This document shows, piece by piece, positions 1-63,059 of a stretch of 64,000 nt of DNA. Source of the stretch: Porphyridium purpureum (taxonomy: Eukaryota); NCBI GenBank assembly GCA_008690995.1, contig VRMN01000008.1:806001-870000 (forward strand), given 5' to 3'. The notes under the pieces are model-generated. The model was not told where the DNA came from, did no database searches, and saw nothing but the letters and a program-made list of their open reading frames with translations. The position numbers were made by a program, and so were the translations under genes. The stretch's first letter is position 1; each line of letters starts with the position of its first letter.

Positions 1-964
1 ACAGTGTCGACGACCAAGCCTTGTCAGATTCGGAACCGTCCCTATCCGGACGTAGCCATATGGAGTCCGCTTCATCGATTTTCAGCTCACGACAAAGGAC
101 ACTGTAGTATGGATCTCTTTCAAGCGCCAATATTGATCGGCCATACTTTCCCAGGACCTGCGTGATTGCGTAGTAGATCGCAGTCATCCACGTGATACCG
201 ATATCGAGAGCTTCCTTCTCCTCGTTTGGCGTGATGCGGTCATCCAGTGGAGCTAGACTTGTACCATATGGTGATACTGGCGTTCTAAACTTTCTGTACA
301 GTCTAGAACTTAAAAATGGCCGACAGGCAAACGACTTGACAGGTTCCTCAACCGTCCCGTCTCGCGTTATGTAGTCGACGACGCGACGCGCGGTTCCCAG
401 ATGGGACTTGAAAGCTGCCGCGAGCGACATACGAATATTCCTGCGGAGCCCATTTTTGGCACCTTTCAGCGATTCCTGCATCAAAGTAGTAAGTGCTTCG
501 TCTTCCATCATGGACGGAGGATCCACAAACCCAATGTCAGTGTACCATGTGGTAAACATTGTCAAGCCCGGCGATGCCGCTGGCGTGTACGGCTCGCGAT
601 GATCATATGTAGCGGCAAGGCGCTCGAACTTGCGCCAGAAGTCCATACAGCCCGTACCCGCGTCGTCGACCTTTACAACCGCAGGTAACAGCCCACGATT
701 CACAATATTGCGCACAAAGATATCGGTCGCGGAGCCTCTTCTGGCTCGCTTCTTCGCTCTGTCTTTCCCGCGGCGCCGCCGCCCAAAATTGGATCCATCG
801 ACTGTGGAAGACAAGGCTGGTGTGACCACAGCCTCCGCCGGCGCGTCCTCGTCCCCCCGCAGCCGCCGGGCCACTGCGCTGCGCGACGAAATCTCAGCGC
901 TGCGACTCATTCCAATATTGACACCCGCGCCACGGACAAGCGCACCCCTTCCCAAGTCTGCCAT
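1..964 (-). CDS. Hypothetical protein, >=321 aa, runs off the window start (missing from the ORF track); basic NLS-like stretch
   Basis: Hand translation from ATG at 964 gives MADLGRGALV...GRRRRGKDRAKKRARRGS...DKAWSSTL with no stop before position 1. Confidence 0.75.
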   Translation of the reverse strand, partial: MADLGRGALVRGAGVNIGMSRSAEISSRSAVARRLRGDEDAPAEAVVTPALSSTVDGSNFGRRRRGKDRAKKRARRGSATDIFVRNIVNRGLLPAVVKVDDAGTGCMDFWRKFERLAATYDHREPYTPAASPGLTMFTTWYTDIGFVDPPSMMEDEALTTLMQESLKGAKNGLRRNIRMSLAAAFKSHLGTARRVVDYITRDGTVEEPVKSFACRPFLSSRLYRKFRTPVSPYGTSLAPLDDRITPNEEKEALDIGITWMTAIYYAITQVLGKYGRSILALERDPYYSVLCRELKIDEADSIWLRPDRDGSESDKAWSSTL

Positions 965-1246
965 ATGGCGCGCCACCTTCGAGATGCACAAGCTCGCCTA
1001 TCTCTCTTCTCCCCCTTGGCGAGAGCGCGCGCAAAAGACAAGTCTAGATTGGAAAAATAGAGCTATTTTCATATCAAAACGTGACCTCTTGGACGTGACC
1101 CGTGTGGGGTGTTGGGGAAGGGATCGCATGCCGTCAAGTTGCGAAGGGGTCGCTTGCTCGCGGAGAAAAAGGGGAGCGGCGATATTGCGACAGAGGCAGG
1201 TTCTGCGGAGACGGGGATTTGCCGGCTGACGACAGCACTTGTCCAT

Positions 1247-4200
1247 ATGGAACGCTCGCTCGGTTCATACCGGGCGGAGGCATGGGAGCTGGAGGACTTG
1301 TACGCGTCCGGAGATATCACCCAGGATGACTTGGACGCCACTCCATATGGACAAAGGATGTGGTTCGGGCCGCTGCTGCCGCCCGATCTTCCACAGGTCT
1401 CTCGGGTGCGGCGCACGGAAGCCTTGCGCCGTGACGAGACGGCCGCGTCGGACCCGATGTCTCACGCCGATATCGGAGCCCGCGAGGCGCACCTGGGCAT
1501 CGCAGTGAGCCATGCGTTTTTGATGTACTTCAGCAATATTGTTGGAGCTCTCAAGTGTCTACGTGGTGGCGTCACGGTGGCCCACTGGATCGCAGAAACC
1601 CCATATGGGCAGCACCACTATTCAGCTCATATGGGAGAGTGGGAGGTGGCACTGTATCGCATGTTTCTGGCGGCGCAGCGCACGGAACGCCTCTTTGCGT
1701 GGTCATATGACGAATTCACGGGCGCAATTGCCGACCAAAGTGCTCCGCGCCAGCTGTCATATGGACATAAGCGCAGGCGCACTGACGCAGGTGCACTCGG
1801 ATATCCGAGACGTGCGCGCATTCAAGAGAGTCTAGACTTGGAGGCGTGGCTGCTGAAGCAGAGGTGCGAATGGCCTCGCCGCCTGACAACCGTTGGTCCA
1901 TATGAGCTCAGCCCAAAGCCGACACGAAGTGACGGCTGGAACAGTGCATATGCTCATTTTTACCAGTTGCGCACGCTTATGCCTGCTGCGCACGGTGCGC
2001 CATCATATGATGCTGCGTTGGTGGTTCGCGGCCACGATGATGCGGTGGAGCGCATCTCGAGGCTTACTCGCAACGCTTATCGGCTTCCTCAATTGCCGCG
2101 CAATATTGCATGCCCGTGCAACACAACAGGATACCCGGCCGTCATCTTCGTCCACGAAGGCCCAAGGCTCCATGTGGAGACGATGCCGACACGTCCGCGC
2201 AGGGCAAGAGACGGTGACGAATTGTTCCCGAAGGGATGCTTGGCGCGCTTAGAACGCATCCGCGCCGTGCGCGTGATGATGGACTTTGCGACAACGCTCC
2301 TCGATATCAGCACGTATGCTACCATATGGTTTGGCAGAGATGCTGCTCTTGCGCATATGCGAAACTTGGTCCAAGAGCTCCGGAGCCGTGTCGTATCCGC
2401 TGACTACTCGGGGTCGGTCTTCCCATATGGACCCACCGAGATGGATGAACAGCCGCAAAGGGTGTTTCGCTGGCCGCCACACCATACAGAGTATCATGGG
2501 CGCCGGCTGCGCGAAGCCTTCAGGATGGAAAATGTCCCGACCCAGCAGATTTCTGCAGATGGGCAGACTTATACCGTCCCACGCTACTCCGAGCGGCACG
2601 CCGTCGACATATGTGTAGCACGGCTGCGGAGCGCTCAGCTGTATGCTTGGCCTTCGATTGCGAGGACGCAATTGTATGCGTTCCGGGACGCGATAAATCC
2701 AGATGGAACGCACGTCCCAGAATTACTCGCACCACGCTTCGATGTCGGCATGGGCAACATCCTGGAATGGGGCATTGAGCTATGGGACCACACGGTAGAG
2801 GCGCACAATCGAATATTCGCACATGTGACGCATGACTACCTGTGGGACGACCTGCCCAAACTGCATGCCACACCGAGGGACACGGACTTAGCCATTGCCA
2901 AGGTGTTTGGCAGCTTCCGTATGGAGCACGGAGGTAGCAGGATCAACTTTGGCCTTCCTGAAGACCTCAATATTGATGCAGCCTCGCACGCAGCATCCAT
3001 CGAGCTCGACACGGCAGCAATCCAGTATTGGAAGGCGCAAGAGACTGCCTTTGCCTGGGATCGGGGGAGCAGCAGCGTGTGGGTGCAATGGTTATCTGGC
3101 AACGTGACCCGAAGACATATGTACCGCGGACACCAGTGCACATCTAATGTGCGATCAATAGAGTATGGGGGGTCCGCGCCATATAGTGTCTGGGTCGCCA
3201 TGCTCAGGCGATTGTGGGTGGATGGCTGGCAGCTGCAGAGGGGCCTTGAACGTGCGGCGGAGATGCTACCACGCCCATCCGAGCCGCGCACGCCACATGG
3301 CACCCGTGTTGAGAAGCCTTTTGCCCCGCAAACGTACCGCACGTCCAGCCTCGCAGGCGGTACTTATGGGCATATGCGATTGCCAGCGGCCAGCCAAAGT
3401 TGGAGCGATGTGGACATCGTGCGAAGCCCGATATCGGCATCTGCGCGTGCACTTCCGGCGTCCGCACACGTGGATATCCAAGACTGCTTGATCTGTCAAT
3501 TTCCGGTGACAGACCAGTTCATCTACGAGTGCACGACCCTGCACCCGACATGCACTAGCTGCCTGCGCATGACATATGCCTTTAAGGTGGCGAACATGTA
3601 CAGCATAGAACTGTCGAACTTTCACGTGGATGACAGGTTCATGCGCAATTATAGCATGTGCGAATTGTGCAGGAAGGCCGTTGGCGTCTGCCGCATATGC
3701 GAACAAAATTACGCATTCGCGCCCTTCCTTTTTGCCGGCGCAATCTGTACGGAAGGCTTCTCGGACGCTTTCGTCGACCATATGGAGAGATGTCTTTTAA
3801 CACGGCACGTCACAGATTTTGCTGCCTTAGCCGGCTGCATCGCCGAACCCAGAAGACCGGGCAGGTGGCGGATATCCACGAACCCACCGCTCGTCGAACT
3901 GGTAGCAAGCCAGGCGCGGCGCCACTTCGCGCACAGCATATGCCACAATATTGTGCGCATAATGCTCGTCGAAATGCGCCGGGCCCGGGCTCGCCAGATG
4001 GCTTTGCCAGTGGAGGATATCCAGGAGTTGCTGGAGTACTTCCCTGGAAATCGACGCAGGCCGTATGGAATATCCCGCAAGCTTGCCTTCGACGTTCTAG
4101 ACACGCGTCGATTTCCTGTGTGGGACGATATCGTCAACGAGTACAACATGTACTGGGATATCCGACCGGTCGTACAGGCAATTGGCTCGAGCCCAGATTG

Positions 4201-4669
4201 GTCTCACCCGCCGAACTTGCCCTGGTGCCAACATATGAACAGTACGTGGCGACCTGGGTATATCCGGCATTATCCGGGTCAGCGCATGATGGAGGATATC
4301 CTTTCATATGAGCGACAGCGGGCTCGCTGCTGGTGCGATTACTTCGTGTCGGAAACCAAGCTCCGCATGCGGCAGGCATTAAGCGATCATATGGTCTCGC
4401 TGCAGGAAGGCGGCACCGGGTTAATACCACCACCACTGCGAGAGCTCTGCGTATGCGACGAGTGCAGGACAGGACAAGGCGTGGCTGCTCATATGAGAAC
4501 ATACCCAGAGCTGGCGGACGACATGAAGATCGCGTGGTACCTTGCCAAGAAGGCCATCGCATATGCGAACCACGGCTCGGTGACGGGGCCGCTTAATACT
4601 TACCAGGTGCCGTCAATATTGACGTGGTCACCGAGTCAATTCCGTGACCACGCTCACAGCACAGAATGA
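1247..4669 (+). CDS. Large protein (~1140 aa) with a C3HC4 RING finger and further Cys clusters; probable transposon cargo
   Basis: Long open frame with first ATG at 1247. The motif C-x2-C-x11-C-x3-H-x2-C-x2-C-x32-C-x2-C lies at 3485-3670, with C-terminal CWC...CVCDEC. Confidence 0.85.
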   Translation: MERSLGSYRAEAWELEDLYASGDITQDDLDATPYGQRMWFGPLLPPDLPQVSRVRRTEALRRDETAASDPMSHADIGAREAHLGIAVSHAFLMYFSNIVGALKCLRGGVTVAHWIAETPYGQHHYSAHMGEWEVALYRMFLAAQRTERLFAWSYDEFTGAIADQSAPRQLSYGHKRRRTDAGALGYPRRARIQESLDLEAWLLKQRCEWPRRLTTVGPYELSPKPTRSDGWNSAYAHFYQLRTLMPAAHGAPSYDAALVVRGHDDAVERISRLTRNAYRLPQLPRNIACPCNTTGYPAVIFVHEGPRLHVETMPTRPRRARDGDELFPKGCLARLERIRAVRVMMDFATTLLDISTYATIWFGRDAALAHMRNLVQELRSRVVSADYSGSVFPYGPTEMDEQPQRVFRWPPHHTEYHGRRLREAFRMENVPTQQISADGQTYTVPRYSERHAVDICVARLRSAQLYAWPSIARTQLYAFRDAINPDGTHVPELLAPRFDVGMGNILEWGIELWDHTVEAHNRIFAHVTHDYLWDDLPKLHATPRDTDLAIAKVFGSFRMEHGGSRINFGLPEDLNIDAASHAASIELDTAAIQYWKAQETAFAWDRGSSSVWVQWLSGNVTRRHMYRGHQCTSNVRSIEYGGSAPYSVWVAMLRRLWVDGWQLQRGLERAAEMLPRPSEPRTPHGTRVEKPFAPQTYRTSSLAGGTYGHMRLPAASQSWSDVDIVRSPISASARALPASAHVDIQDCLICQFPVTDQFIYECTTLHPTCTSCLRMTYAFKVANMYSIELSNFHVDDRFMRNYSMCELCRKAVGVCRICEQNYAFAPFLFAGAICTEGFSDAFVDHMERCLLTRHVTDFAALAGCIAEPRRPGRWRISTNPPLVELVASQARRHFAHSICHNIVRIMLVEMRRARARQMALPVEDIQELLEYFPGNRRRPYGISRKLAFDVLDTRRFPVWDDIVNEYNMYWDIRPVVQAIGSSPDWSHPPNLPWCQHMNSTWRPGYIRHYPGQRMMEDILSYERQRARCWCDYFVSETKLRMRQALSDHMVSLQEGGTGLIPPPLRELCVCDECRTGQGVAAHMRTYPELADDMKIAWYLAKKAIAYANHGSVTGPLNTYQVPSILTWSPSQFRDHAHSTE

Positions 4670-4917
4670 TCCATGTAGACGGGGTACAGGAGGTTGAAAA
4701 ATATTAAATATTAGTAAATTCAAAAAAATAAATTCTTTGGCGTAGAAAACAAAACTTGTTGTCCCTGGAGGTACAGTCAGACCAAATGGTTACGAGGAAC
4801 CCTAAAATCCTTAACGGTTAAGGATTCTAGTATTAACGAATTACATCTCCGCATTAGTGGAGAGTATTAACGGGAGTATTAACGGGCGAGTAACCCTAAA
4901 AACACGGTTATGGACTG

Positions 4918-5475
4918 GACCCGAAACGTGTGTGTCAAGGCCGAAAAGAAGCGGGTCAAAGCCAAAAAGCACACCGCTGCCGCACACTGTTAGGAGGATC
5001 GCGGGGGGATTTTCGCGGAGTATTTCGCGATGAGCGCTGGCACGCAGTGCAAAGTCATCCCTGGTTCGTGCGCGAGAAGTGCACCTCCGCAAGCGCGGAT
5101 GCAATGCCACTGATTAACGCAGTTCTCACAGCCACAAAGCGGGAAAGTGCAACTCCGTGTGATAGATGAGTGAGCGCTGCGGGAGCGCCAAGGCAACTTG
5201 ACACTCCGGTTCAAACGCGTTAGCGCGACGAGAAGCAGTGGCCAAGAGGACCCAGAAGAGCGCAGTCAGAGGAGTGCCGCACTGCTGGTGGGCTGGTGGA
5301 CGGGCGGGCGGGCAGACATTCATTGCCGCGCGCCGCCCGTGGAAGCGTTGTATCGAAGCTCGCTGCCGCGTTCGCCCAGTATGCGCGGTGGGCAAGCTCG
5401 GCGACGATGAGGGTGTGTATCGTGGCGAGCTGTTTGTGGAAGCGCAAAGTATGAACGTTGTGGAACAGGGCGTTA
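4918..5475. repeat. Diverged duplicated segment, copy 1
   Basis: Collinear similarity to 7337-7890 (e.g. AAAAGCACACCGCTGCCGC, TTCTCACAGCCACAAAGCGGGAAAGTGCAACTC, GATGAGGGyGTGTATCGTG). Confidence 0.85.
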
Positions 5476-6367
5476 CTTGTGCGAAAAACTAAGTCCGTTA
5501 TGGAGAGAAAAGCCCCAACGCTTCGCAGCTCCTGAGAAATGATGCGATGACGGATGTCGCCCTTGTGGATGCAGCCGATCGGCATCCTCTCGGTTGCTGT
5601 CGAGCACGCTTGCTACCGGCATGAAGGACAGCGCACCAACAAGCGATCGTAAGACTTCCGGGCCTCATGAGTGCATCCGTGGGCAAATATTTGAAATGTT
5701 TGCCGAGCAAACCATTACAACATACTGATCCGATGCGAATCGGCGTATGCTCTGACAGACTGACAGGACCACAACTTCTGTCAAGCGAGACTGGTCCATC
5801 TTGCGCTCACCATTTGTATAAACTGGAGACAGTTCAATCTGTCACAGCTCATCAAGCTCTGACGCATTCACTGCGCAGCGATCAAACTCATCCACTCAAG
5901 TCGGAGCTGCATTAAACAGGACGAGAAGGACATGGCCTGTGTTGCGCATGGGGAAGGTCTTTTGACTTAGCCTCGAAATCTTGAAGCCTTCATTGAAGTC
6001 TCTTTCTAAACCTTTTTCATCAAATGACAATTTGATCAAAACTGGATCAAAACTGCTGTCTGCCCGGCTCTCGCCCAAAGCAAGGCTTAAAAAGTGGCCA
6101 GAAAACATTCTCTGATCACGAGAAATTCCATTCTGAGGACTTTAGTCTTTTCGAGCACAAAATAATCTCAACTTCTTCCAACCAGCAAATCACAGTTTTC
6201 GGACGGCTATTTGGTAACATGGGCGTATGCAACCGTAGTAAGGACAAAAACCCGACGAGGAAAAACATTGCCTCGAGTGCTTGCAGGCATTTCTTGATAA
6301 AAATTGCAGAAATACTTTCCCGCACGTGCGGGTAATTTGCTGCGAATGACACTTGCTTCGCACCGTC

Positions 6368-7336: not shown

Positions 7337-7890
7337 GACCTGAAAAGTGGGTCAAGGCCGAAAAGCACACCGCTGCCGCGTGTGATTAGGAGGATCGTGG
7401 AGGGACTTTCGCGGTGTATTTCGCGATTTGTGCCGTCACGCATTGCAAAGTCATCTCTGGCGCATGCATGACAAGTGCACCTCCGCAGGCGCGGATGCAA
7501 TTGAAATTGCAATGCAATGCAATGCCGCTGACTAACGAAGTTCTCACAGCCACAAAGCGGGAAAGTGCAACTCGGTGTAATGGATGAGTGAGCGCTGCGG
7601 GGAGCGCAAAGGCAAACTGACTTTGGCTCCAACGCGTTGGTATGACGAGGAGCAACGGCCAAGGGGACCATGCAAGCGCAGTCAAGAAGTGCCGTACTGC
7701 TGATGGGCTGGTGGGCTGGTGGGCAGGCAGGCACTGCCGCGCGCCTCGCATCGAAGCGTTCTACCGCAGCTCGCTGCCACGTGCGCCTAGTGTGAGCAAT
7801 GGACAGCTCGGCGATATCGACGATGAGGGCGTGTATCGTGACGAGCTATTCGAGGAAGCGCAATCCGTGAACGATGTGGAACAGGGCGTG
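7337..7890. repeat. Diverged duplicated segment, copy 2 (continues into decayed coding-like sequence to ~8380)
   Basis: Similarity to 4918-5475. Confidence 0.85.
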
Positions 7891-9406: not shown

Positions 9407-10522
9407 ATGGCGCGGATGTTTCCGTTGGCTTGGGCTGCGACCATCGCGCTGCATGTGACATTGTCCTCGTGGCACAATGTGGTTGCCCAGGAGTTCTGCC
9501 CAAAAGAGTCGAACTGAGCAACCCGTACTCGGCGGTTGGGACACTGGGGTTGGTTCCAGACTCTGCAGGGCCCATCACATGCATGGCCGTCCCCGCGACG
9601 TGTCTCAGTGGGTTCCCCGAGTGTGCGTCGCAACCCTGCCAGGGATACGCGCAAGTCGGAGGAAACCCAAGAGATGGTGCTCGAGTACGAGGACGTTTCC
9701 GACGTACTTTTGGAATTTTCTGCATTGCCGGTGGATGTTGTGCTTGATTTTCGCGATGGAACGGTGACGGCGTATACAAGCCTGGGGGAATTCATGCACA
9801 CTAACGGTTCGCAGGGAGAGTACCGAGTCGTGATCTCGGGAAGTCTCGGTGGAATCAAGTTCAAGGACGAGTTGACGACTGTGGCTTCGTGGGGCCAGCT
9901 TGGCCTGGGGACACTAGAAGAAGCCTTCCTTGACATGAGTTCCCTGAAGGATGTTCCCGCTGACCTACCGTCCACAGTTACAGATCTGAGCGCCATGTTT
10001 GGGCGGTTCTCTGCGTCCGTTCCGGGTGAAGTAGAATCGTGGGACGATTCAAAGGTGACAAACATGAACTACATGTTTGCGCTTTCGAGTTTTAATGGAG
10101 ATATTGGCTCGTGGGACGTATCCAGCGTGACAGACATGGGTTTAATGTTCTTCTTTGCTCCCTTTAATCGGGATATTGGTTCGTGGAACACGTCCAGCGT
10201 AACAGACATGTCCGACATGTTCATCGCTACGCCTTTCAACCAAGATATTGGGGAGTGGAATGTCAGCAGTGTGACCACGATGGAAAGCATGTTTGCGTCG
10301 ACCTCTTCCTTTAACCAGGATATTTCTAATTGGGACGTCAGCAGTGTGACAAAGATGGGTTCCATGTTTGCGAACGCCGCTTCTTTCAGGTAGGACATTT
10401 CTCGTTGGAGTGTAGGACTTGTCGCAAATTGTGCTGGGTTCAGTGATAATTCGCCGCTGGGTTGCTTTTTCGACCCGCCGGATCCAGTGTGTGGATTCAT
10501 TGATTGCCCTTGGGCACCTTGA
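9407..10522 (+). pseudogene. Secreted DUF285/BspA-like repeat surface protein with two in-frame stops
   Basis: Signal peptide MARMFPLAWAATIALHVTLSSWHNVVA, then TGA at 9515. About five [17 protein letters not shown] repeats follow, then TAG at 10391, after which the repeat continues (DISRWSV) to TGA at 10520-10522. Confidence 0.85.
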
Positions 10523-11210
10523 AAGGTCTCATGTACGTCGATGTGAGGAGTTGAAGACGGTTTTCTATTGCGCTGTCATGAAAAATGTTGGCTTGGTTTT
10601 TTTTTTTTTTTTTTCTTTCTGTCCGTACTCAAGGTGTCAAACATAAAGACATACACCAAGTTGAGGATACTCTGGTGTGTTGCAGCTTGCTCAAGCCACG
10701 AATGTCAATCAGACCCTATCCATAAAAATCCATCCTTCTCGGCCTGTACTCAAGTGGTCGACGTACCAGACCCACATGTCAAGCCTCGATCGCCCTGGTT
10801 CTGCGAGAAGACTGTCCACTGGTGAAAAATGGGCACTCAGAGGCATACACAAGAAGCCCCACTCATGTCGTCTCGCATGTCTGAGAAGCCTGGAGTGCGG
10901 CCACATTGAGAAATAGGAGCAGTCAAGCCATGGATCTAGAACCGTTTCGAAGGCTAGTGTGTTGTGCAAGTTGGTTGCCGGTGGTCTCATGGTACCGAGC
11001 GGCGTGCTCATCGATGAGGTATTCATGGACGCACCTGTCCACTTTCGGGCGTCTGCGAGGATGCAACAGCGCAGGATTTCCTTGCAAGTGGGTTGGGTGC
11101 TATTCTGGAATTTCCGAAGTGTGGGGTGCGGCTCGGCGGCGTTTGGCGCAATCGGCTAGGCAGCGGTTTGTGTCTCTCAACCCAGTCGTTAACGATTACT
11201 ACGATTAGTA

Positions 11211-11225
11211 CCACTGCCACTGCCA

Positions 11226-11323
<98 letters not shown>

Positions 11324-11365
11324 ACTGCCACTGCTACTGCTACTGCTACTGCTACTGCTACTGCT
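11211..11365. repeat. Compound hexanucleotide microsatellite (CCACTG/GTTGCT/CTACTG)
   Basis: Directly visible tandem array. Confidence 0.95.
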
Positions 11366-11853
11366 CATGACGCGGTTTCAAACCTGTGCTTGGTCGAACC
11401 TCCAAGATGAACTCTGAAAATTTATCACCGAGGTGCTTACGGAACGCCAGCAGCCTCACGCAAGAGCCGGAGGCGAAGCACAGTGCGAGCTCTGCAAAGT
11501 TCCTGCTTCGTTATTTCTATTCTTCTGGGGATGCAGAAGTGCAATCACAGGTGGAGAATGCAGAGTTCCGCGTCGCCACAAATTACTACTTTTTTTCCAG
11601 TGACACGAGAGCGTTCGAAATGAAAAGGCCTGCCAATCTAGCGCACTGAAGAGGGCGTACTCTCCATTAGGATGCATGGTGGGTGCGAGGTGTATGGGAA
11701 ACATTTTATCTATCCAACACCGTTCTTTTCAGCTTGTGTCCCAATCACAGGCCAGCAACGTGTGATAGACAAGCATAGTTTGTCTATCAGCACAGTATCA
11801 GCCACAAGTTCTACGAAAGGACGCTTTGCAAGATATCCAAGCCACGCACGTGT

Positions 11854-19669: not shown

Positions 19670-21695
19670 TCACTGGAAGTTGAAATGCTTCAGCCCAAGG
19701 CGTCGCATGTGCTTTCTGAACAGATCCGCCGAAACTGGCTTGTTTAAAGGATCTGCAGGATTCATTCTTGCGAGCACGCAGGCATACGCCACTGGTCCAT
19801 CTTTTTCTATTTCAGCAAGCCAAGCGAGACTGACTGGCTGCATTTTCTGCACGTGCTTCAGCTAGTCGCTCTACCCGCGTTTGATGGCAGCAATTGCAGA
19901 CTCGTTGTCCAAATGGAGTTGCACGCGTGGCCAGTTTCCAAAAAGTTAACGCTGGGGCTGCGCTACGGCCAGCTTGGCGAACACCAGCACGGTGTTTCAT
20001 TTCGAGTTTACGCGAGCGTCCAAAGCTCCAAACACCTGATCTCAGGTATGCTGGTTCAGCGCGACAGATATGGTCAATGCTTTTTCGCACGTGTGTTCTG
20101 AGAGAATAAGCACCAGCTGAGCAGCTCCTTTTCTTTTAACTCTTGCTAGCTCTTTCTTCCTTCTTCTTTATCTAAGAATCCCTACATCATGCGGAGATCG
20201 ACGCTCATCATATACCCCTCAGGGCAGAGGCGCATCACAGACCGCCTGCGGGCCGACCCCCCCCGGAGGCCGCAACGGCTCTATCGTCCGTTCAGGTCCG
20301 TTGGATTCACAATTACTACGCCTGCATCGGACATGAGCGCGCAAACACTGTCGTTCATCTCTATTCCCCGTCAGGCTATCCCACGGGGCGGAAGGTTTGT
20401 TCTTTACCCATACACCCTGAACCTTTTATTTTTGTTCTAGTGCTACCTTCCCGCCGCCGCTCGCCGAGTATTTATACGCTGGCCAAGAAATTCAGGGTTT
20501 GGGTAACCCTCAAAGTAACTTGGTACAGCTAAAACTGTACCTGGTCAATTATTCACACTAATAATTGACAAACACCAATTGCGCATCGCTTGACGCACCC
20601 ATGTTTGAACATTGCCGATACGGAAACGGCTTCTCCTTACTTTCTTACCGGCAAACTAGGCCGGTGACTAGGGACCGATTTAACTCAAAACTCTCTTCCA
20701 CAAGCATTGATGCTGGGAATACGCTGCCCTGCGCTGCACAGTGCACTGATGTCAATTTAGCTTCTACTGCGTTCGTGCTGTGCGCCATTGCCTTCGTGAA
20801 CCTAAATCTGTCGAGTATTTGACGCCATTCGCACAAAGCAACAATGCAAATCCCGACTTCGAGTGCGCTTTCCCATGAAATCAGAGTCACTGAATCATTC
20901 AAGCTCTACAATTACTTTTGCTCGGTTTGGAAACTTGTATGTTAGCTCCGTATCTGCGTGTGAGGCAAGATAGCTCAGCACCTGATCTAAATCGTTCTGC
21001 ATTGCGTCAATTCCATGATCGTCAGCACGAGCCAGCTGACCAACAGCATGACACGAATCCAAACGAGAGCATTGTGCGAGCGATGAAAGCTACCCGACCA
21101 TTTGCTGGACGCCTTCTGGACATGTTTTTTCGCGCGTCTACTTCCGATCTCGGTGCTAGCGGAGTGCTGCGCAAACATCCCACACCCGCCTCCGCGCAGA
21201 TGTGCCTTGCATAAGACGTTGATGTTAAAACCCACGATTTCCTTCGCTCATGCATCTGGCAGTATATTTGAATGCCAAAGTACCGAATCGGGTCTTCAGC
21301 GCTTGACAGACGAAGAGACTTGATTGGCTTCGGCATGCTAAAACTGTTCTTCGTTTCTTTTGAGGCTTGCCGCACATCTCGTCGGCTTCCGAGAGGTGCG
21401 TCAACGTCAACGGGGAGGACGAGACACATGGTTAGATCCTGCATTCGGCAATGGTGTGCATTTCGGTCAGAGTTGTTTCCCTTCTGTGTGTAGGCCATTA
21501 GGCGTTTGCGTGCGGCATGTCCGTCGTCGCTGCCAATGCTTGCTAGCCATTGGAAGTGGAATACAAGGCTTTGTTATGCATGGCAACTTTGCATACAACT
21601 GCCAGTTACCACGCTCCGCAAAATATGAAGAAGATTGCGAACGAGCCCGACTGTCTCGTGTCCGTCTAGACTTGCACTTACGTACGATGCCTGAA
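19670..21695 (-). mobile_element. Decayed Copia-order retrotransposon, RT/RNase H part
   Basis: Fragments HVQKMQPVSLAWLAE...NPADPLNKPVSADLFRKH and PIRYFGIQIY...WVLTSTSYARHI align with the RH/RT of ORF 30624-34769 (HVSKMQHISIRWLHE...NLADGLTKPLPTDKFRSH; PISFLGSHLY...WVLDSSSYAQHI). Confidence 0.85.
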
Positions 21696-21989
21696 TGTTA
21701 CCAATGCTGTGCCTTTTTACTCTGCTTCTTCTTACCTCTTCTGTCTCCGAGCAAGACCTGACCGGCTAGTCCGGGCAGGCGCGTCGCCTTTTTATACCCT
21801 TACTTCCGCTAGGGACAGCAAGGCGCCAAGAGAAATGACAATGCAAATGATTGGCATTTCTGCGCGCGTCTAGAAGGTTCTGGAACCTCTAGAAGCTTCT
21901 AGAAACGGTTAAACGGTCTACCGGTTTAACGGCTTACCGGTTTCGGAGTAACCGAACCGTTCTAGGTGACTGGGGTCGAACGGATAACA
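21696..21989 (-). repeat. 3' LTR of the gypsy element
   Basis: Near-identical to 26861-27163 apart from a CT-rich indel region and a few substitutions. Confidence 0.97.
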
Positions 21990-22108
21990 TCTCCCCCCCT
22001 CTTGGCTCGACGTCTCGGCGAGACTTCAAACTAAGTTGCATTCTTGGCTCGAGGAACCCGCGCTCCGGGAGAAAACCTCTGCCTAGCAAACTTCTCACAA
22101 TACCCAAG

Positions 22109-25100
22109 TCATTCAGAGTCAGACTCTTCGATAATTTTCAACAAGTCTGGCTCAGAATCGGACGCCGGCATTTCGTCGGGTACTTCTTCATCATTTTCCC
22201 CTGCCATGTAGTCTTCGCGTCCATAGTATGGCTTCAGATGTTGGATCGGAAAAACATCATGACAAGCCACACCCTCGGGCAAAACCACTCGGTAAGCATG
22301 CGAGCTTACCTTCTCAATGACAGGCACCGGACCAAGAAACTTTGGTGCCGCCAAATCACTCTTGTTCGGCCGCAGTTGCGGCGCCGTGACCAACACTTGA
22401 TCACCAACTTGAAACTCCCGGGCATCCTTGCTTCGATCGAAGAACTTCTGCATTCTCCCTTGGGCTTCGATCAAATTGTCGCGGACTTCTTCATGGACTT
22501 TGCACAGGCGAAACCAGTGCTCCGCCATGTCCTTCGTCTGTCCGTCGCGCGCAGGCCTCCACCCTTCGCTCGGTGGAAACCAAGGATCCCTTCCATATAC
22601 CACTTTGAACGGCGCGAATCCAGTGGCACTGCTTGGTGCAGAGTTGTACGCAAACTCGTACAACGGCAAGTCTCGCACCCAGCCACTATTCGTCGCCATC
22701 AACTTGAGCATTTCCCGAATCACGCGGTTCACTCGCTCAGTTTGGCCATCAGTCTGCGGGTGGTTGGCGGTAGACATAGCCAACTTCATGCCCACCCGCT
22801 TGCTCAACTGCTGCCAAAACGTGGACGTAAACAGCGGATCTCGGTCCGATACAATTGACTTGGGGTATCCGAAACGGCTCACGACGTGCTTCACGAACAA
22901 GTCAGCACAACGCTTTGCTGTCAAGTCCTTGCGCGTCGGGATAAACAGCGCCATCTTCGAATAGCGATCCACCACAGTCATGATTGCATCACAGCTGCCT
23001 TCGCTCCGAGGCAGCTCCGTCACAAAGTCCATCGAAATGTCGACCCAAGGTCCTTCTGGGATCGACAAGGGCTTCAGCTTTCCGAACGACCGATTCTCAG
23101 ACTTTGTCACTTGGCATGCGTGACAAGTCTTCACAAAACGGCTCACGTCTCGCTTCATCTTTGGCCAGTAGAAGCGAGTTATCAAAGATGCATAAGTCGT
23201 GTCCGCTCCACGGTGCCCTGCTGTCGGGATATCGTGGTGGAGCTGCATGACACGCTCTCTGAACTTCCTCGGCACGCAAACGCGATTCCTCAAGTACAAG
23301 AGCCCGGCTTCGGTTCGAAAACCTTGGTGGGTCGGTAAATCCCCCATCAAAGGACCAAAGTCTGGGTCACTCGAGTACGAACCCACGAATGCCTGGAAAC
23401 CCGCACCAAATTCATCACACCGAACCTGGTACTCTAGCGCGTGTAACTCTGGCTTCCTCGACAAAGCATCGGCTACCACGTTCGACTTTCCCTTCACATA
23501 GTCGATTGTGATATCAAACTCGGCTAAAAAGTCCAGCCACCGTGCTTGCCGGCCATTCAGCTCCTTCTGCGTCATCAAATGTTTCAACGCCTCATGATCC
23601 GTATGAAGCACAAACTTTGCCCCGAACAGATAAGGTCGAAACTCTCGCAGACAGTGAATGACGGCCATGAGCTCACCTTCATAGCTGCTGTACCTGGTCT
23701 CTCGGTCCAGCAGCTTCCTTGACGTAAACGCGACCGGTCTGCCTTCCTGTGCCAGCCATCCCCCCACCGCGACTTCGGAGCGGTCCGTGTACACCTCAAA
23801 TGGCTTTTCAGGGTCTGGCAAGGCCAACACCGGCGCTTCCGTCAACATCCCCACAATCTTCTCGAAGGCCGACTTGCCTTCATCTCCCAGTTCGATCAGC
23901 TGCTTCTTCGACTTTGCGTTCTGCAACAGCGAAGTCAGCGGCGCCACGACGGTAGAGTATCCTTTGACAAACCTGCGAAACCAGTTTGTCATTCCCAAAA
24001 AGGATCTCAACTCCGTCACCGTCTTTGGCACTGGCCAATCTCTCAAAGCTTCCACCTTCCGTGGATCCATCTTCACGCAACCGTTGCCGACAATGTTCCC
24101 CAGGTATTCGACTTCAGAAACGAAGAAGCTGCACTTCTTGCGCTTCAACCGATACCCCGCCTTTTGCAAGCGCGACAACACTTCCTTCAGGACCTCAGCA
24201 TGCGACTGCCTATCCTTGGTAAAGACCAAAATATCGTCCAAGTAGACAATGACGGTCTTGTCCAGCAGATCTGCAAACAGCTCGTTCATGGCCCTCTGAA
24301 AAGTTGCCGGCGCGTTGCAAAGACCAAACGGCATCACACGGAACTCGAACTGTCCGTACCTGGTCTGGAACGCGGTCTTCGGCACGTCCTCTCTCCGAAC
24401 ACGCAACTGGTGGTATCCCGATGCCAAATCCAACTTTGAAAAACAATGAGCTGCGCCCAGTCGATCCAGCAACTCATCCATGTTTGGCAACGGATACCGG
24501 TCCTTCACAGTTGCGTCGTTCAACGCCCGATAATCGACGCACATCCTCATGCTGCCGTCTTTCTTCTTCACGAACAGCACGGGTGCTCCAAACGGGCTCT
24601 GACTCGGCTGGATGAATCCTTTATCCAGCAAGTCGTCCAAAGTCTCTCGGAGGACTTTCAACTCCGCAGGGCTCAGTCGGTAGACCCTGCCCACTCTCAC
24701 AGGCTTTTCATCTTTCAGCCTAATCACATGCTCCACTGTTCGGCTCTCAGGCAGCCCACGTGGCTCCTCGAACAGATTTTCGAAATCCTTGAGCATCTTT
24801 CTCACAGAGTCATCTCCTTTGCGCTCCACTGAACAGGGCTCCTCCCTTCCTTTCAGCACGCCGAGGTAGCACTCTTCTACCTCCTGACTCTTCAACAGCC
24901 GACGGAGCTCTTTCCGTGGCACCAGCATCTGCGTCATGCTCCAGGCCTTCTTCTCTCCGTAGGCCAACATGCCAGACTGCCAATCAATCACTGGGTTCTC
25001 CCGCTTCAGCCACTCCATGCCCAAGATTGCGTCTTGTCCCGCAATCCGGCAAATGGCAAAGGTAGCGGTCCCTGAGTACCCATCGCTCAGTTCAAACTTG

Positions 25101-26293
25101 ACATTGGAAACTTCTCCGGCTGTTTCCAATACTGACCCGTCTGCTAGGGTCACATGATCTCTCTTCCACGACGCCTTATGCTTCAGGCCGTCGGATTTCA
25201 GCACAAAGTCCACGCTCATGAAGTTGTCCGTCGCGCCACTGTCAATCAAAAACGTGGCCTCTCCATCGGACTTGTGCACTTTTCCTCGAACTCGAAGAAG
25301 CATGGCAGCTCCCATCCCTCCAAGTTCCTTGATCACGGGCTGATTTGCGCTCGAGTTTCGCCCACAAGGTTTCGGACAGCCAGACCTTGGCTTACCAAGG
25401 CCACCACAGCGGTCTTCATTGCCGCCCCTAGAGGTCTCGTAACGTCTGCGAGCCTCCTTTCCCTCTGACTGTCCGAGGAACCTCTTTACTCGAGCTCCTC
25501 GTTTTTTTGACTCCAGCGAGTCTCCCTCCAGCTGCTGGATAGTCTTCCTTGCCTCGGGACACTTCCTCGCGATGTGTCCCGGCCTTCCACAATTCCAGCA
25601 TTTGAGCTCGGTACGAACACGCCTCTGACCCTGCACATGTCCCAGCTCCATCGGGACGGGTCCTTCCTGCGCTGCACGACCGAAAAATGGCGTCCTCACA
25701 CTTGAATCACGCACGCCGCGGGTCGCATGAATGGCGTCGTCCACGACCACCGCCACCTGCGCAGCCTCCGCGAACGTACTCACTCCTCGCTTGTACACTT
25801 CCAAGCGGACCTCGGGCTTCAGACCCCTCACAAAGCGGTCCATCATTTCTGCGTCCGACAAGTCCGGAATCACAAGTGCCGCGTCCTGAAAAGCCGCCAC
25901 ATACGCATGGGCCGGGCCTTTCTGCGAAAGACGCGTCAACTTGTCCCTTGCACGCCTGATCGAATCCTGCGGCGTGAACCGAGCACTCACGAGGGCAGCA
26001 AAATCATTCCACGTCGTGGGGATCTCCTGCGGGTAGCGCTCGCAGTTCAGAACCCACCAATGAAGCGCCTCTCCCTCGAAATAGTCTGATGCCAGGTCCA
26101 CAGCACGCCTCTCCGCAAGCAGACGTTTCTCCAAATCGTCCGGGTGGATGCTCTCCGACAGCCGGCCCAAGATCTTCTTTCTCGCCTGGAACAACCACGT
26201 CTTCACAACCAGAAGGTCACGCTTCCCGTCGAACCTCATCAGACGGGCCTCCTTCGGGCCACGTGGTCCCAGCGTCTCCGAATCAATCTCCAT
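22109..26293 (-). CDS. Gag-Pol polyprotein (Gag, CCHC knuckle, PR, RT, RH, IN), 1394 aa, no chromodomain
   Basis: PMELG and CWNCGRPGHIARKC; LIDSGATDNF; YLDD; RH; HHCC and DDE integrase; GPY/F-like C-terminus. Confidence 0.97.
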   Translation of the reverse strand: MEIDSETLGPRGPKEARLMRFDGKRDLLVVKTWLFQARKKILGRLSESIHPDDLEKRLLAERRAVDLASDYFEGEALHWWVLNCERYPQEIPTTWNDFAALVSARFTPQDSIRRARDKLTRLSQKGPAHAYVAAFQDAALVIPDLSDAEMMDRFVRGLKPEVRLEVYKRGVSTFAEAAQVAVVVDDAIHATRGVRDSSVRTPFFGRAAQEGPVPMELGHVQGQRRVRTELKCWNCGRPGHIARKCPEARKTIQQLEGDSLESKKRGARVKRFLGQSEGKEARRRYETSRGGNEDRCGGLGKPRSGCPKPCGRNSSANQPVIKELGGMGAAMLLRVRGKVHKSDGEATFLIDSGATDNFMSVDFVLKSDGLKHKASWKRDHVTLADGSVLETAGEVSNVKFELSDGYSGTATFAICRIAGQDAILGMEWLKRENPVIDWQSGMLAYGEKKAWSMTQMLVPRKELRRLLKSQEVEECYLGVLKGREEPCSVERKGDDSVRKMLKDFENLFEEPRGLPESRTVEHVIRLKDEKPVRVGRVYRLSPAELKVLRETLDDLLDKGFIQPSQSPFGAPVLFVKKKDGSMRMCVDYRALNDATVKDRYPLPNMDELLDRLGAAHCFSKLDLASGYHQLRVRREDVPKTAFQTRYGQFEFRVMPFGLCNAPATFQRAMNELFADLLDKTVIVYLDDILVFTKDRQSHAEVLKEVLSRLQKAGYRLKRKKCSFFVSEVEYLGNIVGNGCVKMDPRKVEALRDWPVPKTVTELRSFLGMTNWFRRFVKGYSTVVAPLTSLLQNAKSKKQLIELGDEGKSAFEKIVGMLTEAPVLALPDPEKPFEVYTDRSEVAVGGWLAQEGRPVAFTSRKLLDRETRYSSYEGELMAVIHCLREFRPYLFGAKFVLHTDHEALKHLMTQKELNGRQARWLDFLAEFDITIDYVKGKSNVVADALSRKPELHALEYQVRCDEFGAGFQAFVGSYSSDPDFGPLMGDLPTHQGFRTEAGLLYLRNRVCVPRKFRERVMQLHHDIPTAGHRGADTTYASLITRFYWPKMKRDVSRFVKTCHACQVTKSENRSFGKLKPLSIPEGPWVDISMDFVTELPRSEGSCDAIMTVVDRYSKMALFIPTRKDLTAKRCADLFVKHVVSRFGYPKSIVSDRDPLFTSTFWQQLSKRVGMKLAMSTANHPQTDGQTERVNRVIREMLKLMATNSGWVRDLPLYEFAYNSAPSSATGFAPFKVVYGRDPWFPPSEGWRPARDGQTKDMAEHWFRLCKVHEEVRDNLIEAQGRMQKFFDRSKDAREFQVGDQVLVTAPQLRPNKSDLAAPKFLGPVPVIEKVSSHAYRVVLPEGVACHDVFPIQHLKPYYGREDYMAGENDEEVPDEMPASDSEPDLLKIIEESDSE

Positions 26294-26860
26294 GCTTTCT
26301 GGACTAAAGCACGCTCAACGACGACAACGACACAAACAGCAAGCCTCCGATGCTCACTTTCTCCAACAGCTGCGCGCACCACGAACGGGCTCGGTCGCCC
26401 TCACGAACACAAACCGACACACGAAGCGGTCCTCTCACGCACACACACGCACAGCAATCTTCTCATGCACGCACAACAAAGCACACAGCAATCCTCCTCT
26501 GTTGCGCTGGATGGGGAGCGGCCCGGGCCTTTGCACTGGGGCGGGGATTATAGATGCGATCTTGTATGGAGGTGTTCGGCGCCTACCTTCGCAAAGGTGG
26601 TCGTGCGACACTAGGATGAATCCTAGTGAAGGCTGACCGTTACGGCTCTTGCCTACTAATACGTGCTAAGGCAGAGAGCGAGTCCGCCGTCAAGGCCTAG
26701 GCCTATCGTACAGCCAAGACTGAGACCCGCTTCCACCCGTCGCACCCTCCGGATCGACTTACTCGAACCCCCTTACCCGCAGACTCTCCCACCCAGGCAA
26801 CCCCAGAGAAACGCTAAGAGAACCTTAGAGCAACCCCAGGTAACCAGCGATGATACCAAA

Positions 26861-27163
26861 TGTTACCAATGCTGTGCCTTTATTCTCTCTCTCTTCTTCC
26901 TCTTCTTACCTCTTCTCTCTCCGAGCAAGACCTGACCGGCTAGTCCGGGCAGGCGCGTCGCCTTTTTATACCCTTACTTCCGCCAGGGACAGCAAGGCGC
27001 CAAGAGAAATGACAATGCAAATGATTGGCATTTCTGCGCGCGTCTAGAAGGTTCTGGAACCTCTAGAAGCTTCTAGAAACGGTTAAACGGTCTACCGGTT
27101 TAACGGCTTACCGGTTTCGGAGTAACCGAACCGTTCTAGGTGACTGGGGTCGAACGGATAACA
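26861..27163 (-). repeat. 5' LTR of the gypsy element
   Basis: Adjacent to the PBS; direct repeat of 21696-21989. Confidence 0.97.
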
Positions 27164-27168
27164 CTGAA

Positions 27169-28700: not shown

Positions 28701-30112
28701 CGTGTCCCAGCCAGAACCCACAGCACGATGTGATAGCAGATACAGTGAACCACACACGCCCGAATTTGTCGGGTCTATGAAGTCGACGGCAATGGTGTCA
28801 TTAAACGCGAGCGCAGACTCAATGTAGGTCGCCCGTTTTCAATCAGTGCGTTGAACGTGTCACAGACAGGCCTCCAACAACGACTGCCACCTGCCGCTGG
28901 AAACTCTCCCTCTCTTTGTATGTTTTTGACTGCCCGCCTTTTCTAACCCTGCTAGGCGACATTTACGATCTATCTCCCCTTTTTGTGCGCATGTCCCTTG
29001 TGCCAGCATATATTAGCGAACCGTTGTGCCCTCAATGGACTGGAAAGCCATTTCATCGCTGAACTATTAACTACATTGCCTGTTGTGACAGGACGCTTAC
29101 CGCCTTTCGCGGGCTTCCGCGTCTACAACTCGCCACGTACAAAATTTGCAAGCGTTGGTATGAAATGTTTCTATTTGTTTCGTACAGAACAATTCCGAAA
29201 GTCGAGTGTCGGACTTACTTGCGACATCCGGAGTCTCGGCAGTGCCGCGATACCCAAATCTCTCTACGAAGGAGTGCACGCCCCCATTCACGGACTCTTA
29301 ATATCTGTGCGAAACGCTGCGTCGTGCTTTGCACCGCGCTCTGCTCTACTTTTCGGATTACCGCATCATGTGTTACGTCTGCACAGCATTAAGATCGCGG
29401 CATCTTATGCTGCTCTGTCTCTTCCCACGTCTCATACCATAATTCCACTATTGAATAAGCATCCGCTCTAGATCGCTTCCTTAAGATTTGAAGGAATGGG
29501 AATGACATCCTTCTTGCAAGGTCACGCTCTGACTTCATGACGAAAGCTTGTTTGGGCTTTTGGTCTTTCTTTTGTTTCTGTACCCTATTCCTCGTATGTG
29601 TTGTGATACCTGCATTGATGCTCAGTGTAGATGTAATCCACAGACAGCTTGAAATCTATTGCTTTCCTCCTTTGCTCAGACCATAGCCTTTTGAGCCAGT
29701 ATGGTATTGTACGTAGTGACCATGCACATGCGACCTCTCACGGATTAGTACTATTTCATACACTCTCATATGCTGCTACAGTCATATACATGCTGTGCTT
29801 CCAACGCGCGTCGGATTCACCGATTTTGTTTTTTTCCCACTTTGTTGTAACGATCTACCCTCTATTGTCATCGAGATTTTTAATCCCTCCTGATAGTTTC
29901 TATAATTACTAAGTCCTAATGACTCAAAAACCAAGCCAATTGGCTTTTCTAGCGTCATGAGAAAGTTGGACAAAGGGGTCTTCTGATTCAGTCGACTCTA
30001 ATTGTTTTATTTTCAAGCAGGGTACCTTCATCAAGAAATGGCGGGAGTCCATACTGAGACTAACAAGGAGACCCGCACTGGAGCCGGGTGGTTGTAATGA
30101 GGCTAATTGCAA

Positions 30113-30545
30113 TGATACTACTACTACGTGTTTACTGTATTGTTACGGTGGAGAGGAAGAGGCAAAGCAAATAGGACCAACTTTACCTCCAACACACTAA
30201 CTTCTCTCTTACCCTTTCTTAGATCGGGTCGCGCTCTGCGCCGCTCTTACCTCGCCGCTTATATATCCTCGCAGACGCGCAAACGACGGCGACGACAACA
30301 AGGTACAGCAGGTCGGTGGGGCGGTGTATACACGGTTCAACCACGCGCCCCCCAGCGCCACACCCGCCGTGCAATCAGCCTCGCCGGGCAACTACCCGCC
30401 AATCATTCAGATCAATTTTTCATTTGATGTTTCCTTCGCGCCTTGCGCGTCTCACCAATCCTTAACCCGGACGCCACGACCACGGCGCGCCAGCGTGACC
30501 ACCAGCAGAACGTGTGCGGAAAAACATAACCACGATCACACGCCA
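30113..30545 (-). repeat. 3' LTR (inner boundary approximate)
   Basis: First ~215 bp are about 80% identical to 45387-45602, include a TATATAA box on the minus strand, and are followed by a polypyrimidine (PPT) tract. Confidence 0.75.
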
Positions 30546-30623
30546 AAGATTTCCTTTCCTCTTCTTCCTTGTTCTTTTCCTTTTTCTTTTTGACCTTACT
30601 CGCACCTGGGGTAATAGCCGTGA

Positions 30624-34794: not shown

Positions 34795-35050
34795 AAAACG
34801 CCCGGAAAAACTCTTGGAAAAACTCCTTGCAGTGTCAGCACGAAAAGTACAGTGCTTTTTCCATTGTCTGTCTTTTCTGAGAAAACTCTAATAATAAATG
34901 GCAGAAAAACTCGTGGAAAATCTGTTCAGCCGCTGTCCTTTCAGAATAGTAGAGTGATCTGAGGTATTTCAAACGCATCTTCGTGAATTTTGGAAAAACG
35001 TTTCTTGTACGAATTGAAAAACTCGGAGAAAAACAGCCGGAAAAAGCATG
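34795..35050. repeat. Left subterminal repeats (GGAAAAACTC variants)
   Basis: About 8-9 degenerate copies visible; the same motif occurs in both orientations at 43998-44117. Confidence 0.85.
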
Positions 35051-35090
35051 GGACTCGCGTGAAAGGGGAAGTGATTCGTGTACCGCAACT

Positions 35091-39005: not shown

Positions 39006-39073
39006 GCCTATGCGCCGAATCTCTTTAACTCCCCTCGCACGGCCCCCTCGCGCCGTCCAATCGTCTCGTCCTC

Positions 39074-39188
39074 TCGTCCGGCCCACTCGTCCCGTCCTAT
39101 CGTCCGGCCCACTCGTCCCGTCCTATCGTCCGGCCCACTCGTCCCGTCCTATCGTCCGACCCACTCGTCCGACCCACTCGTCCGACCC
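39074..39188. repeat. Minisatellite upstream of the transposase: 3 x 26 bp followed by ~3 x 13 bp
   Basis: TCGTCCGGCCCACTCGTCCCGTCCTA x3, then TCGTCCGACCCAC x~3. Confidence 0.92.
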
Positions 39189-39271
39189 TTTCTTCGCGTG
39201 CGTCTAAGTTGACGCTATTTTCTTCAAGTTGTTGGTGTGCATTACATCACCGCACTATTCAAATATTATTA

Positions 39272-43850: not shown

Positions 43851-43997
43851 ATGCTTCATTTCTGCAGCGAAAATAAAAAGGAACCGTTGAGTATTTCGGT
43901 TACAAAGTATGGGAATTCTCACGTGTAATTTATGGAAGCTTGAAATGGCTGTCAAAAGAACTTCCAGATCTTGGAATGCCGGAATGTAATGAGAGCC

Positions 43998-63021: not shown

Positions 63022-63059
63022 CTCTGCATATGATGCACCGGAACCACGCACGAACGGGC

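Follow-up and report, generated by a model that had tools for sequence, protein, structure and literature searches.

An evenly spaced array of ATAT-centred palindromes, conserved in symmetry and not in sequence, in a probably Crypton-like mobile element of Porphyridium purpureum

The DNA analysed here covers 64,000 bp of the genome of the red alga Porphyridium purpureum (assembly GCA_008690995.1, contig VRMN01000008.1, positions 806,001 to 870,000 of the forward strand; hereafter the window), and its left edge is occupied by part of a multicopy, transcribed mobile element that is probably a new Crypton-like transposon. This element is filled with short perfect palindromes that share the four-base centre ATAT, differ in the letters of their arms while the arms stay complementary, and follow one another at even distances. 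Within the window the sites are confined to this one element, as the first-pass annotation of the sequence had proposed, and an evenly spaced array that is defined by symmetry matches no system found in the literature searched. Arms coupled in this way require either arm-to-arm pairing or the copying of one arm onto the other. Tentatively, and at slightly less than even confidence, we regard the palindromes as a selected array of fold-back sites at which a protein of the element docks or by which it marks the DNA.

Window positions 1-4670 were taken as the element portion and the other 59.3 kb of the same window as the comparison. ATAT occurs 56 times in the former (12.0 per kb) and 122 times in the latter (2.06 per kb), and among these the palindromes of at least 6/8/10/12/14 bp number 51/41/23/6/2 in the element and 37/8/2/1/0 outside. 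The hexamers at the core are 28 CATATG, 13 GATATC and 10 AATATT, with no TATATA at all; 21, 10 and 10 of them, respectively, reach 8 bp (41/51). These hexamer counts and octamer fractions had been obtained by hand in the first-pass annotation and proved exact on recount, as did its estimate that about five ATAT are not part of a 6-bp palindrome (51/56 are) and its location of two 14-bp palindromes near 1796 and 4610 (Table 1). CATATG is indeed scarce in the rest of the window, with 8 copies where about nine had been given. Of the 16 palindromic four-base centres tested, ATAT alone shows a large excess.

The symmetry itself was examined with flanking positions paired outward from the palindrome centre, pairs 1 and 2 lying inside the ATAT core. 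Complementarity between the arms declines going outward (0.91, 0.82, 0.54, 0.32) and thereafter stands at chance. When left and right flanks were re-paired among sites, the mean counts of palindromes of at least 6/8/10/12 bp were 21.1/7.1/1.9/0.6 against 51/41/23/6 observed, a level reached by 0 of 20000 re-pairings. The codon-preserving control suggested earlier gave the same answer, since the maxima of 2000 synonymous shuffles of the long open reading frame (ORF) (34/21/12/7/4) fall below every observed count (43/40/32/20/6). Permutation within classes of identical inner core left pair 3 symmetric in 21.2 sites on average (51/56 observed; 0/20000), and corresponding within-class permutations gave 19.4 for pair 4 (41/51; 0/20000) and 11.8 for pair 5 (23/41; 1/20000). 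Because the coupling persists under permutation inside the same inner word, it is symmetry and not one word that is conserved, and the earlier statement that the sites do not represent one binding motif survives these conditional permutations. Nine octamers account for all 41 sites of at least 8 bp, the commonest being CCATATGG (9 sites) and CAATATTG (8 sites), and the 23 sites of at least 10 bp comprise 17 different decamers. Every one of the 56 element ATAT is symmetric at pair 3, at pair 4 or at both, whereas 67/122 outside are symmetric at neither. G-C pairs are favoured beside the core (41/51 at pair 3, 39/46 at pair 4; against 57.5% GC), with no such preference at pairs 5 and 6 and no additional motif past pair 4 in the symmetrised flanks. 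The flanks of different sites are mutually unrelated (mean identity 0.26), and neither a degenerate tandem unit nor a CRISPR-like repeat was detected in the array.

The sites are also evenly spaced, with a coefficient of variation (CV) of the gaps of 0.62 against 0.89 for the null (3/3000 as even) and 0.82-1.28 for 12 other 4-mers within the element. Intact sites lie on average 83 bp apart, and 14 of the 55 gaps measure 63-76 bp. The large gaps are filled by ten decayed sites, defined by one core change and three symmetric flanking pairs, which bring the mean distance to about 70 bp and the CV to 0.46 (0/5000 under two nulls); a looser set of 18 gives 0.53 (0/5000). With decayed sites included, the largest gap is 133 bp, against a mean of 304 bp for random sites (0/5000), and none of the 4421 windows of 147 bp lacks a site; we offer the likeness of this ceiling to the length of a nucleosome as a remark only. 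Cores that differ by one transition and keep symmetric pairs 3-4 are enriched in the element (11/62 vs 62/757, p 0.018) and are decayed sites; cores with one transversion are not significantly so (7/69). Neither a strict long-range period (Rayleigh p 0.23) nor helical phasing is present, and arm length is unrelated to the distance of the neighbouring site. The evenness is not dictated by the encoded protein, because 43 sites drawn at random from the 80 codon-permitted places have a CV of 0.905 and only 14 of 5000 such draws are as even as the observed 0.646. The pair of origins offered in the first-pass annotation, a palindrome-perfecting process or structural selection, is upheld as a choice; even spacing speaks for selection, or for a process that carries its own ruler, more than for plain palindrome-perfecting mutation.

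Most of the array lies in protein-coding DNA (52/56 sites in ORFs), and it also crosses the intergenic DNA between two divergent genes. In the long ORF the sites occupy all three codon phases (9, 21 and 13), as noted before. ATAT is present at 43/80 and 9/19 of the permitted places in the element's two ORFs, compared with 0-35% in 10 of 11 other ORFs of the window and 3/6 in the eleventh. The dipeptides His-Met, Asp-Ile and Asn-Ile together number 23 in the long ORF against 5.4 expected and 6 in the left ORF against 1.5; a weaker excess occurs in three other proteins of the window (3 vs 0.8, 3 vs 1.4 and 5 vs 2.1). In the part of public gene models P0032-P0034 beyond the window the same dipeptides number 5 against about 2 expected (p 0.04-0.08), and the array, going by these residues, probably extends left past the window edge. 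Symmetric pairs that involve a fourfold-degenerate base (8/9, 14/18, 7/14) are about as frequent as those in non-degenerate pairs (22/23, 13/17, 17/34). The first in-frame ATG of both the left and the long ORF falls inside CCATATGG (961-968 and 1243-1250); the claim that both start codons do so thus holds for these ATGs, the start of the long ORF being a prediction.

Four public runs were compared over window positions 1-5600 and contain many variant contigs, the variant figures being drawn from 40 of 203 variant rows. Proteins encoded elsewhere in the window cluster with named P. purpureum proteins. The stretch carries the same letters at most sites in contigs and raw reads of the other runs, and since these are independent and agree, an assembly artefact, which had been named as a possible refutation, is excluded. 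Within the element lie 36 of the 40 variants, with 16 synonymous and 14 non-synonymous changes in the long ORF, 3 and 1 in the left ORF and two intergenic; a copy from a metagenome shows 7 synonymous and 3 non-synonymous codon differences, and a diverged paralogue 7 and 7. Random change would leave about a quarter synonymous, and the synonymous excess therefore indicates that the element genes are under selection now or were recently. No indel occurs within either ORF among the copies compared. At the site 2967-2976 neither the paralogue nor the metagenome copy has a listed difference, and none is listed for 2810-2819 either, where a few differences near the alignment ends were counted but unlisted; sites shared with the diverged paralogue must be older than the split of the subfamilies. 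The decayed site at 2915-2926 has changes at 2919 (window), 2926 (window and close copies), 2920 (one paralogue) and 2917 (metagenome copy), and its perfect 12-bp form in run X17 depends on a contig of depth 4.1, the reconstruction following also from X3, X14 and X21. Of the 36 element variants, one restores a core, one extends one, and three are breaks of a core present in other copies. These data fit an array that is now eroding or only loosely maintained, as far as these sequences go. In one run (X9), depth is 0-6 across the element compared with 575-620 at 5237-5600, which hints at most that the element is missing from some strains.

The left gene of the carrier probably encodes a tyrosine recombinase. 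Its protein is 95-97% identical on other contigs, and its look-alikes in the Atlas are QRICH1, ALOG and Phage_int_SAM_1 clusters at 0.81-0.83, where scores below 0.9 are leads only. Residues 331-348 of P0032 contain L-G-L-R followed by D-I, which we take to resemble the first-arginine motif of the R-H-R-Y tetrad; H-x-x-R and Y were not located, and that part lies beyond the window, where public gene models disagree. ALOG is described as a version of the recombinase N-terminal domain (PMC3537659) and QRICH1 as a descendant of Crypton recombinases (PMC3212892). The left protein has no match in Pfam, PHROG, NCBIfam or the Protein Data Bank (PDB) and none to a Cre profile, and similarity searches returned its own copies only. 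The identification as a recombinase remains a lead because both a comparison with Cre (probability 0.3%) and a profile built from 8 Cre-like proteins were blank. Two further segments, D-A-G-T-G and D-P-P-S, 45 residues apart in amino acids 100-151 of the left protein (window 500-670, minus strand), presumably recall motifs I and IV of adenine methylases; no methylase family matches the left or the 1140-amino-acid protein, and the Atlas leads for the left protein point to a recombinase domain instead.

For the 1140-amino-acid protein all homology and family searches were blank, a single NCBIfam row (ObgE, E 0.026) being far under the cut-off and dismissed. Neither protein, over the part of the element in the window, matches a reverse transcriptase family, and no viral relative or capsid family was found. 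From one fifth of one run, 42 RNA records cover 211 bp (2785-2995), oriented mostly as a plus-strand transcript and without an intron joint in that interval; three reads of the diverged paralogue (2785-2920, with one start place) are opposite in strand to about 39 from close copies. No RNA family was found (a single row, E 0.78).

Different flanks follow the same right end in other copies, and the host repeat resumes at about 4918. TATGG at 4909-4913, the sole TATGG or CCATA in 4631-5300, lies 1-5 bases before the junctions; the match was noted post hoc, and the left end of the element is outside the window. The 10-mer copies and the 14-bp inverted repeat of the subterminal region (Table 1) are candidate binding sites for the recombinase. 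There are no ATAT sites from 4713 to the end of the element, the right-end DNA folds no better than shuffles (z -0.92), and no terminal inverted repeat was seen there. One X1 contig departs from the window sequence at 4609, one base ahead of the last 14-bp palindrome. A non-coding repeat is present in two 78% identical copies (4949-5473 and 7345-7889) around a 257-amino-acid gene, and the left edge of the first copy marks the end of the element.

We consider it fairly likely that the element is Crypton-like, on the strength of the Atlas leads, the L-G-L-R...D-I segment and the TATGG by the right end. It is a dispersed, low-copy mobile repeat and, like the Cryptons (CryptonS and CryptonF) in the portions consulted of PMC3212892, PMC9977147 and PMC13465315, combines a probable tyrosine recombinase with a second gene and has a right end at which no terminal inverted repeat was seen. 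In the same portions TATGG is the terminus of most CryptonS; in our element, by contrast, it sits 1-5 bases inside the junctions and is the reverse complement relative to the recombinase gene, and the second gene is unlike the accessory genes listed there. The string "palindrom" is absent from the seen text of PMC3212892 and PMC13465315, and the available passages of the Crypton literature describe no internal palindromes.

Table 1. Positions of the array, its carrier and associated features in the window
Feature	Position	Strand	Remark
Array of 56 ATAT-centred sites (51 palindromic over at least 6 bp) and 10 once-mutated sites	56-4624	none	
Perfect palindrome, 14 bp	1796-1809		
Perfect palindrome, 14 bp	4611-4624		Final site of the array
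Left gene, 5' part (public model P0032, 544 amino acids)	2-964	-	Probable tyrosine recombinase, candidate only
Open reading frame of 1140 amino acids	1247-4669	+	Transcribed on the sense strand; no homologue found
RING-like Cys/His pattern, amino acids 747-818 of the 1140-amino-acid frame	3485-3700	+	Pattern match; no Pfam hit
Stretch best conserved with the diverged paralogous family	2751-2991	+	Flanking loose ends translate without a change of frame (judged by eye)
Decayed site	2915-2926		By parsimony a 12-bp palindrome, symmetry lost one-sidedly in four lineages
Subterminal region	4802-4886	+	14-bp inverted repeat (4802-4830); 10-mer in three copies (4829, 4863, 4875)
Right end of the element	4909-4918	+	Other copies diverge from the window past 4914 or 4918 (loose ends X1, X3, X13)

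In the reading that we tentatively place first, a protein of the Crypton-like tyrosine-recombinase transposon would recognise the fixed ATAT centre together with base-pairing between the arms, the sequence of the arms being irrelevant. Pairing would be read on DNA that is transiently single-stranded or folded back, as a mini-hairpin with an ATAT loop, which might form in a copy-out intermediate or in DNA melted within a protein complex; single-strand copy-out is described for bacterial elements with tyrosine recombinases (PMC9345347). The reader could be the 1140-amino-acid RING-bearing protein or the recombinase, and its role might be to coat or protect the DNA of the element, to keep it active or to replicate it again. 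The benefit would saturate near one site per 70-130 bp, so that, in this proposal, gaps are where selection favours the gain of a site, and the loss of any single one does little harm. Present genomic copies lose individual sites through point mutation. We rank the docking array first because the even spacing with its gap ceiling, the sixfold excess of the centre and the cost in amino acids suggest selection for coverage. A wider formulation, in which a eukaryotic tyrosine-recombinase transposon writes a symmetry code whose fold-back ATAT sites, about every 70 bp and at least one per nucleosome length, are read by its own protein, seems to us rather doubtful when taken as a whole, and we are about equally reserved towards the further claim within it that the strength of the code suffices to reshape the proteins of the element. 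Such a code could perhaps also be shared, on other centres of four bases, by transposons unrelated to this one.

Several results weigh against docking. Symmetry at pair 6 is at chance (6/23 vs 6.5 expected), so that stems extend 1-3 pairs beyond the core; in local folds pair 3 is predicted to form in 8-11 of the 56 sites, and extra folding beyond pair 5 is weak, with 2, 26, 2 and 7 of 60 swaps reaching the observed value. Palindromic bases took 4 of 23 changes against 3.96 expected, and in this small sample no present purifying selection is visible. Changes that break a core, at 2428, 3120 and 4391, occur in contigs of high depth from other samples. No compensatory two-arm change distinguishes any of the copies, all changes at palindromes being one-sided, and the expectation of the first-pass annotation that substitutions converge on symmetry thus found no support in the small sample compared. 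The variants compared are 40 of 203. Both the binding protein and the recombinase are candidates, and the AlphaFold models of the two proteins, made from single sequences, are unusable (mean predicted local distance difference test scores, pLDDT, of 34 and 37), the Foldseek rows from one of them being meaningless.

The strongest rival, somewhat unlikely in our estimate, is that the palindromes are self-inflicted scars. Here the recombinase would cut staggered over ATAT and seal the ends as hairpins, and host repair would open these off-centre and re-anneal them, copying 1-3 flanking bases from one arm to the other through the self-complementary ATAT; symmetric sites would be the end state, and only DNA that moves together with the enzyme would gather them. 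Hairpin sealing is known for the enzyme family of tyrosine recombinases. Protelomerases are grouped with them in PMC3537659. Crypton recombination uses overlaps of 4-6 bp (PMC3212892), and Cryptons also act on target motifs that are not at their own ends (PMC9977147). A constant centre with arms that fade with distance is what scarring predicts, as is the lack of any ATAT asymmetric at pairs 3 and 4 alike; decay looks neutral, and the absence of indels agrees with it too, since arm copying leaves length unchanged and frames stay open. Yet the process by itself is no source of new ATAT, which are in sixfold excess, and it predicts random or clustered spacing where even spacing is seen, so that an extra ruler such as the footprint of a bound protein is needed; moreover, no conversion event was seen between copies, and the recombinase is a candidate. 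Selection and scarring can also combine.

Recognition of a small set of about nine fixed palindromic octamers on double-stranded DNA by one or more dimeric proteins or methylases, in the way of VANC targets or HIP1 and perhaps with adenine methylation, is improbable. Nine words do cover the 41 sites of at least 8 bp, even spacing suits selected protein sites, and red-algal Plavaka elements are described with a putative adenine methylase, a ParB-like gene and inverted-repeat arrays (10.1101/2025.02.11.637652). However, the arms are coupled within hexamer and octamer classes and 17 decamers occur at 23 sites, which independent half-site preference cannot yield. For the red alga Pyropia, AMT1, the ApT methylase, is reported to be missing, and TAT contexts are reported to be the least methylated, in sources on organisms other than Porphyridium; the link to ApT modification made in the first-pass annotation is accordingly unsupported.

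We find it still less probable that the signals act in RNA, as mini-stems with an AUAU loop in the transcript or in an RNA intermediate, in the manner of dispersed packaging signals in RNA viruses. A transcript of the long ORF does exist, and mismatches at pairs 3-5 in transcript sense comprise 13 G-U, 8 A-C and 20 others; this wobble excess is small, however, the array runs unbroken over two divergent genes and intergenic DNA, the loop is a palindrome in its own right, something an RNA hairpin does not require, and no capsid or reverse-transcriptase family was found. A comparably low probability attaches to general template switching during replication or to excision footprints of another transposon that targets AT. 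By our own reasoning, a hairpin at a DNA end that stops in AT would give a symmetric, ATAT-centred geometry. Template switching is described in PMC6649704 as perfecting short quasi-palindromes, but here the effect is limited to 1 of 16 centres and to this element. After footprint formation, ordinary ATAT should still be present (0 seen, about 5 expected) and lengths should have changed, which was not seen, and even spacing would not be expected. For a group of ATAT-targeting piggyBac elements no printed description was found. Chance, codon bias or an assembly artefact can practically be dismissed, as no shuffle reproduces the pattern and independent contigs and raw reads agree.

The known systems that come closest each differ in a defining property. 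The VANC anti-silencing proteins encoded by VANDAL transposons of Arabidopsis bind motifs of their own element, and these elements likewise accumulate short motifs (PMC5735166); VANC motifs, however, are fixed 8-9-mers that are tandem and non-coding, whereas the array here is dispersed in coding DNA and keeps symmetry alone. The packaging signals in STNV (satellite tobacco necrosis virus) and MS2 are many short dispersed stem-loops with a conserved loop and a free stem (PMC3593212), a pattern that the array shares with very short stems, but they belong to single-stranded RNA viruses and a capsid protein, unlike chromosomal DNA with a palindromic loop and equivalent strands. HIP1 of cyanobacteria (PMC4390886, PMC5861425) is an excess of a palindrome in coding DNA with non-random spacing and a debate on repair versus selection; it is one fixed octamer across whole genomes, with periods of 10-90 kb and a link to methylases, whereas the array has variable arms (nine octamers, 17 decamers), a spacing of about 70 bp and one element, its excess not extending to the remaining 59 kb of the window. 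The HIP1 analogy drawn earlier is thus loose. Nematomorph mitochondria contain perfect coding palindromes with unrelated arms for which arm conversion was proposed (PMC6649704), but those arms extend to hundreds of bases with no common centre or spacing mentioned in the parts consulted, unlike even sites of 6-14 bp on one centre. Red-algal Plavaka transposons, through PAG3, are suggested to bind and modify their own inverted repeats (10.1101/2025.02.11.637652), though with tandem arrays beside one gene, a ParB-like protein and a DDE transposase, domains not found in the proteins of our element. Full-text literature searches, with subscription journals and Repbase reports outside their scope, returned nothing comparable, in line with the earlier remark that no description in a eukaryotic transposon was known.

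The signals by which mobile elements are known to recognise themselves consist of fixed words or repeats. For a dense, even code that rests on symmetry about four central bases, other chemistry is required, either fold-back recognition or arm copying made by an enzyme, and programs that look for motifs or repeats cannot see it. If docking sites are the true explanation, they would form a self-recognition system without a fixed motif, and the protein that reads their structure would represent a new type of DNA reader. The scar process, if real, would preserve a record of the cutting and resealing of DNA by recombinases of the Crypton-like kind, about whose transposition little is understood, and would amount to a mutation process that rewrites proteins. 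Should the sites turn out to be ordinary protein-binding words, the array would sit with those of the VANC type. The question can be put to experiment, since the element is transcribed and P. purpureum is transformable (PMC6110788).

Palindromes on other centres and further mobile DNA were also noted in the window. In 50-4630, CCGG- and AGCT-centred palindromes of at least 8 bp are slightly up (5 vs 0.9 and 5 vs 1.2), a difference that is borderline after allowing for 15 centres, and GCGCA is enriched in the element (43 vs 21). The region 35000-44000 holds a 1304-amino-acid ORF (35091-39005, minus strand) and three more ORFs, none with a Pfam match, and a 317-amino-acid ORF within it has three near-identical copies elsewhere in the genome; we take the region to resemble a large, Plavaka-like DNA transposon. 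TCGA-centred palindromes of at least 8 bp are mildly up there (7 vs 1.9 and 7 vs 2.3, uncorrected) and possibly form a weaker array with another centre. A full-length Ty3 retrotransposon with an intact 1394-amino-acid ORF and two long terminal repeats (LTRs) of about 300 bp lies at 21693-27166, and a solo LTR of the same family at 62722-63024. A 1205-amino-acid ORF at 30110-34241 has an aspartyl protease and a weak match to a Copia-type reverse transcriptase, and a 220-bp repeat of this region pairs with 45384-45602, which adjoins a separate gag ORF. An intact Tc1/Tc3 transposase (50978-51994) belongs to a cluster of 10 members, a DUF285 repeat gene (9536-11375) is followed downstream by a hexamer tract, and 54281-58916 contains a local duplication (79% identical) of a 543-amino-acid gene with Pro/Thr and Gly/His repeats.

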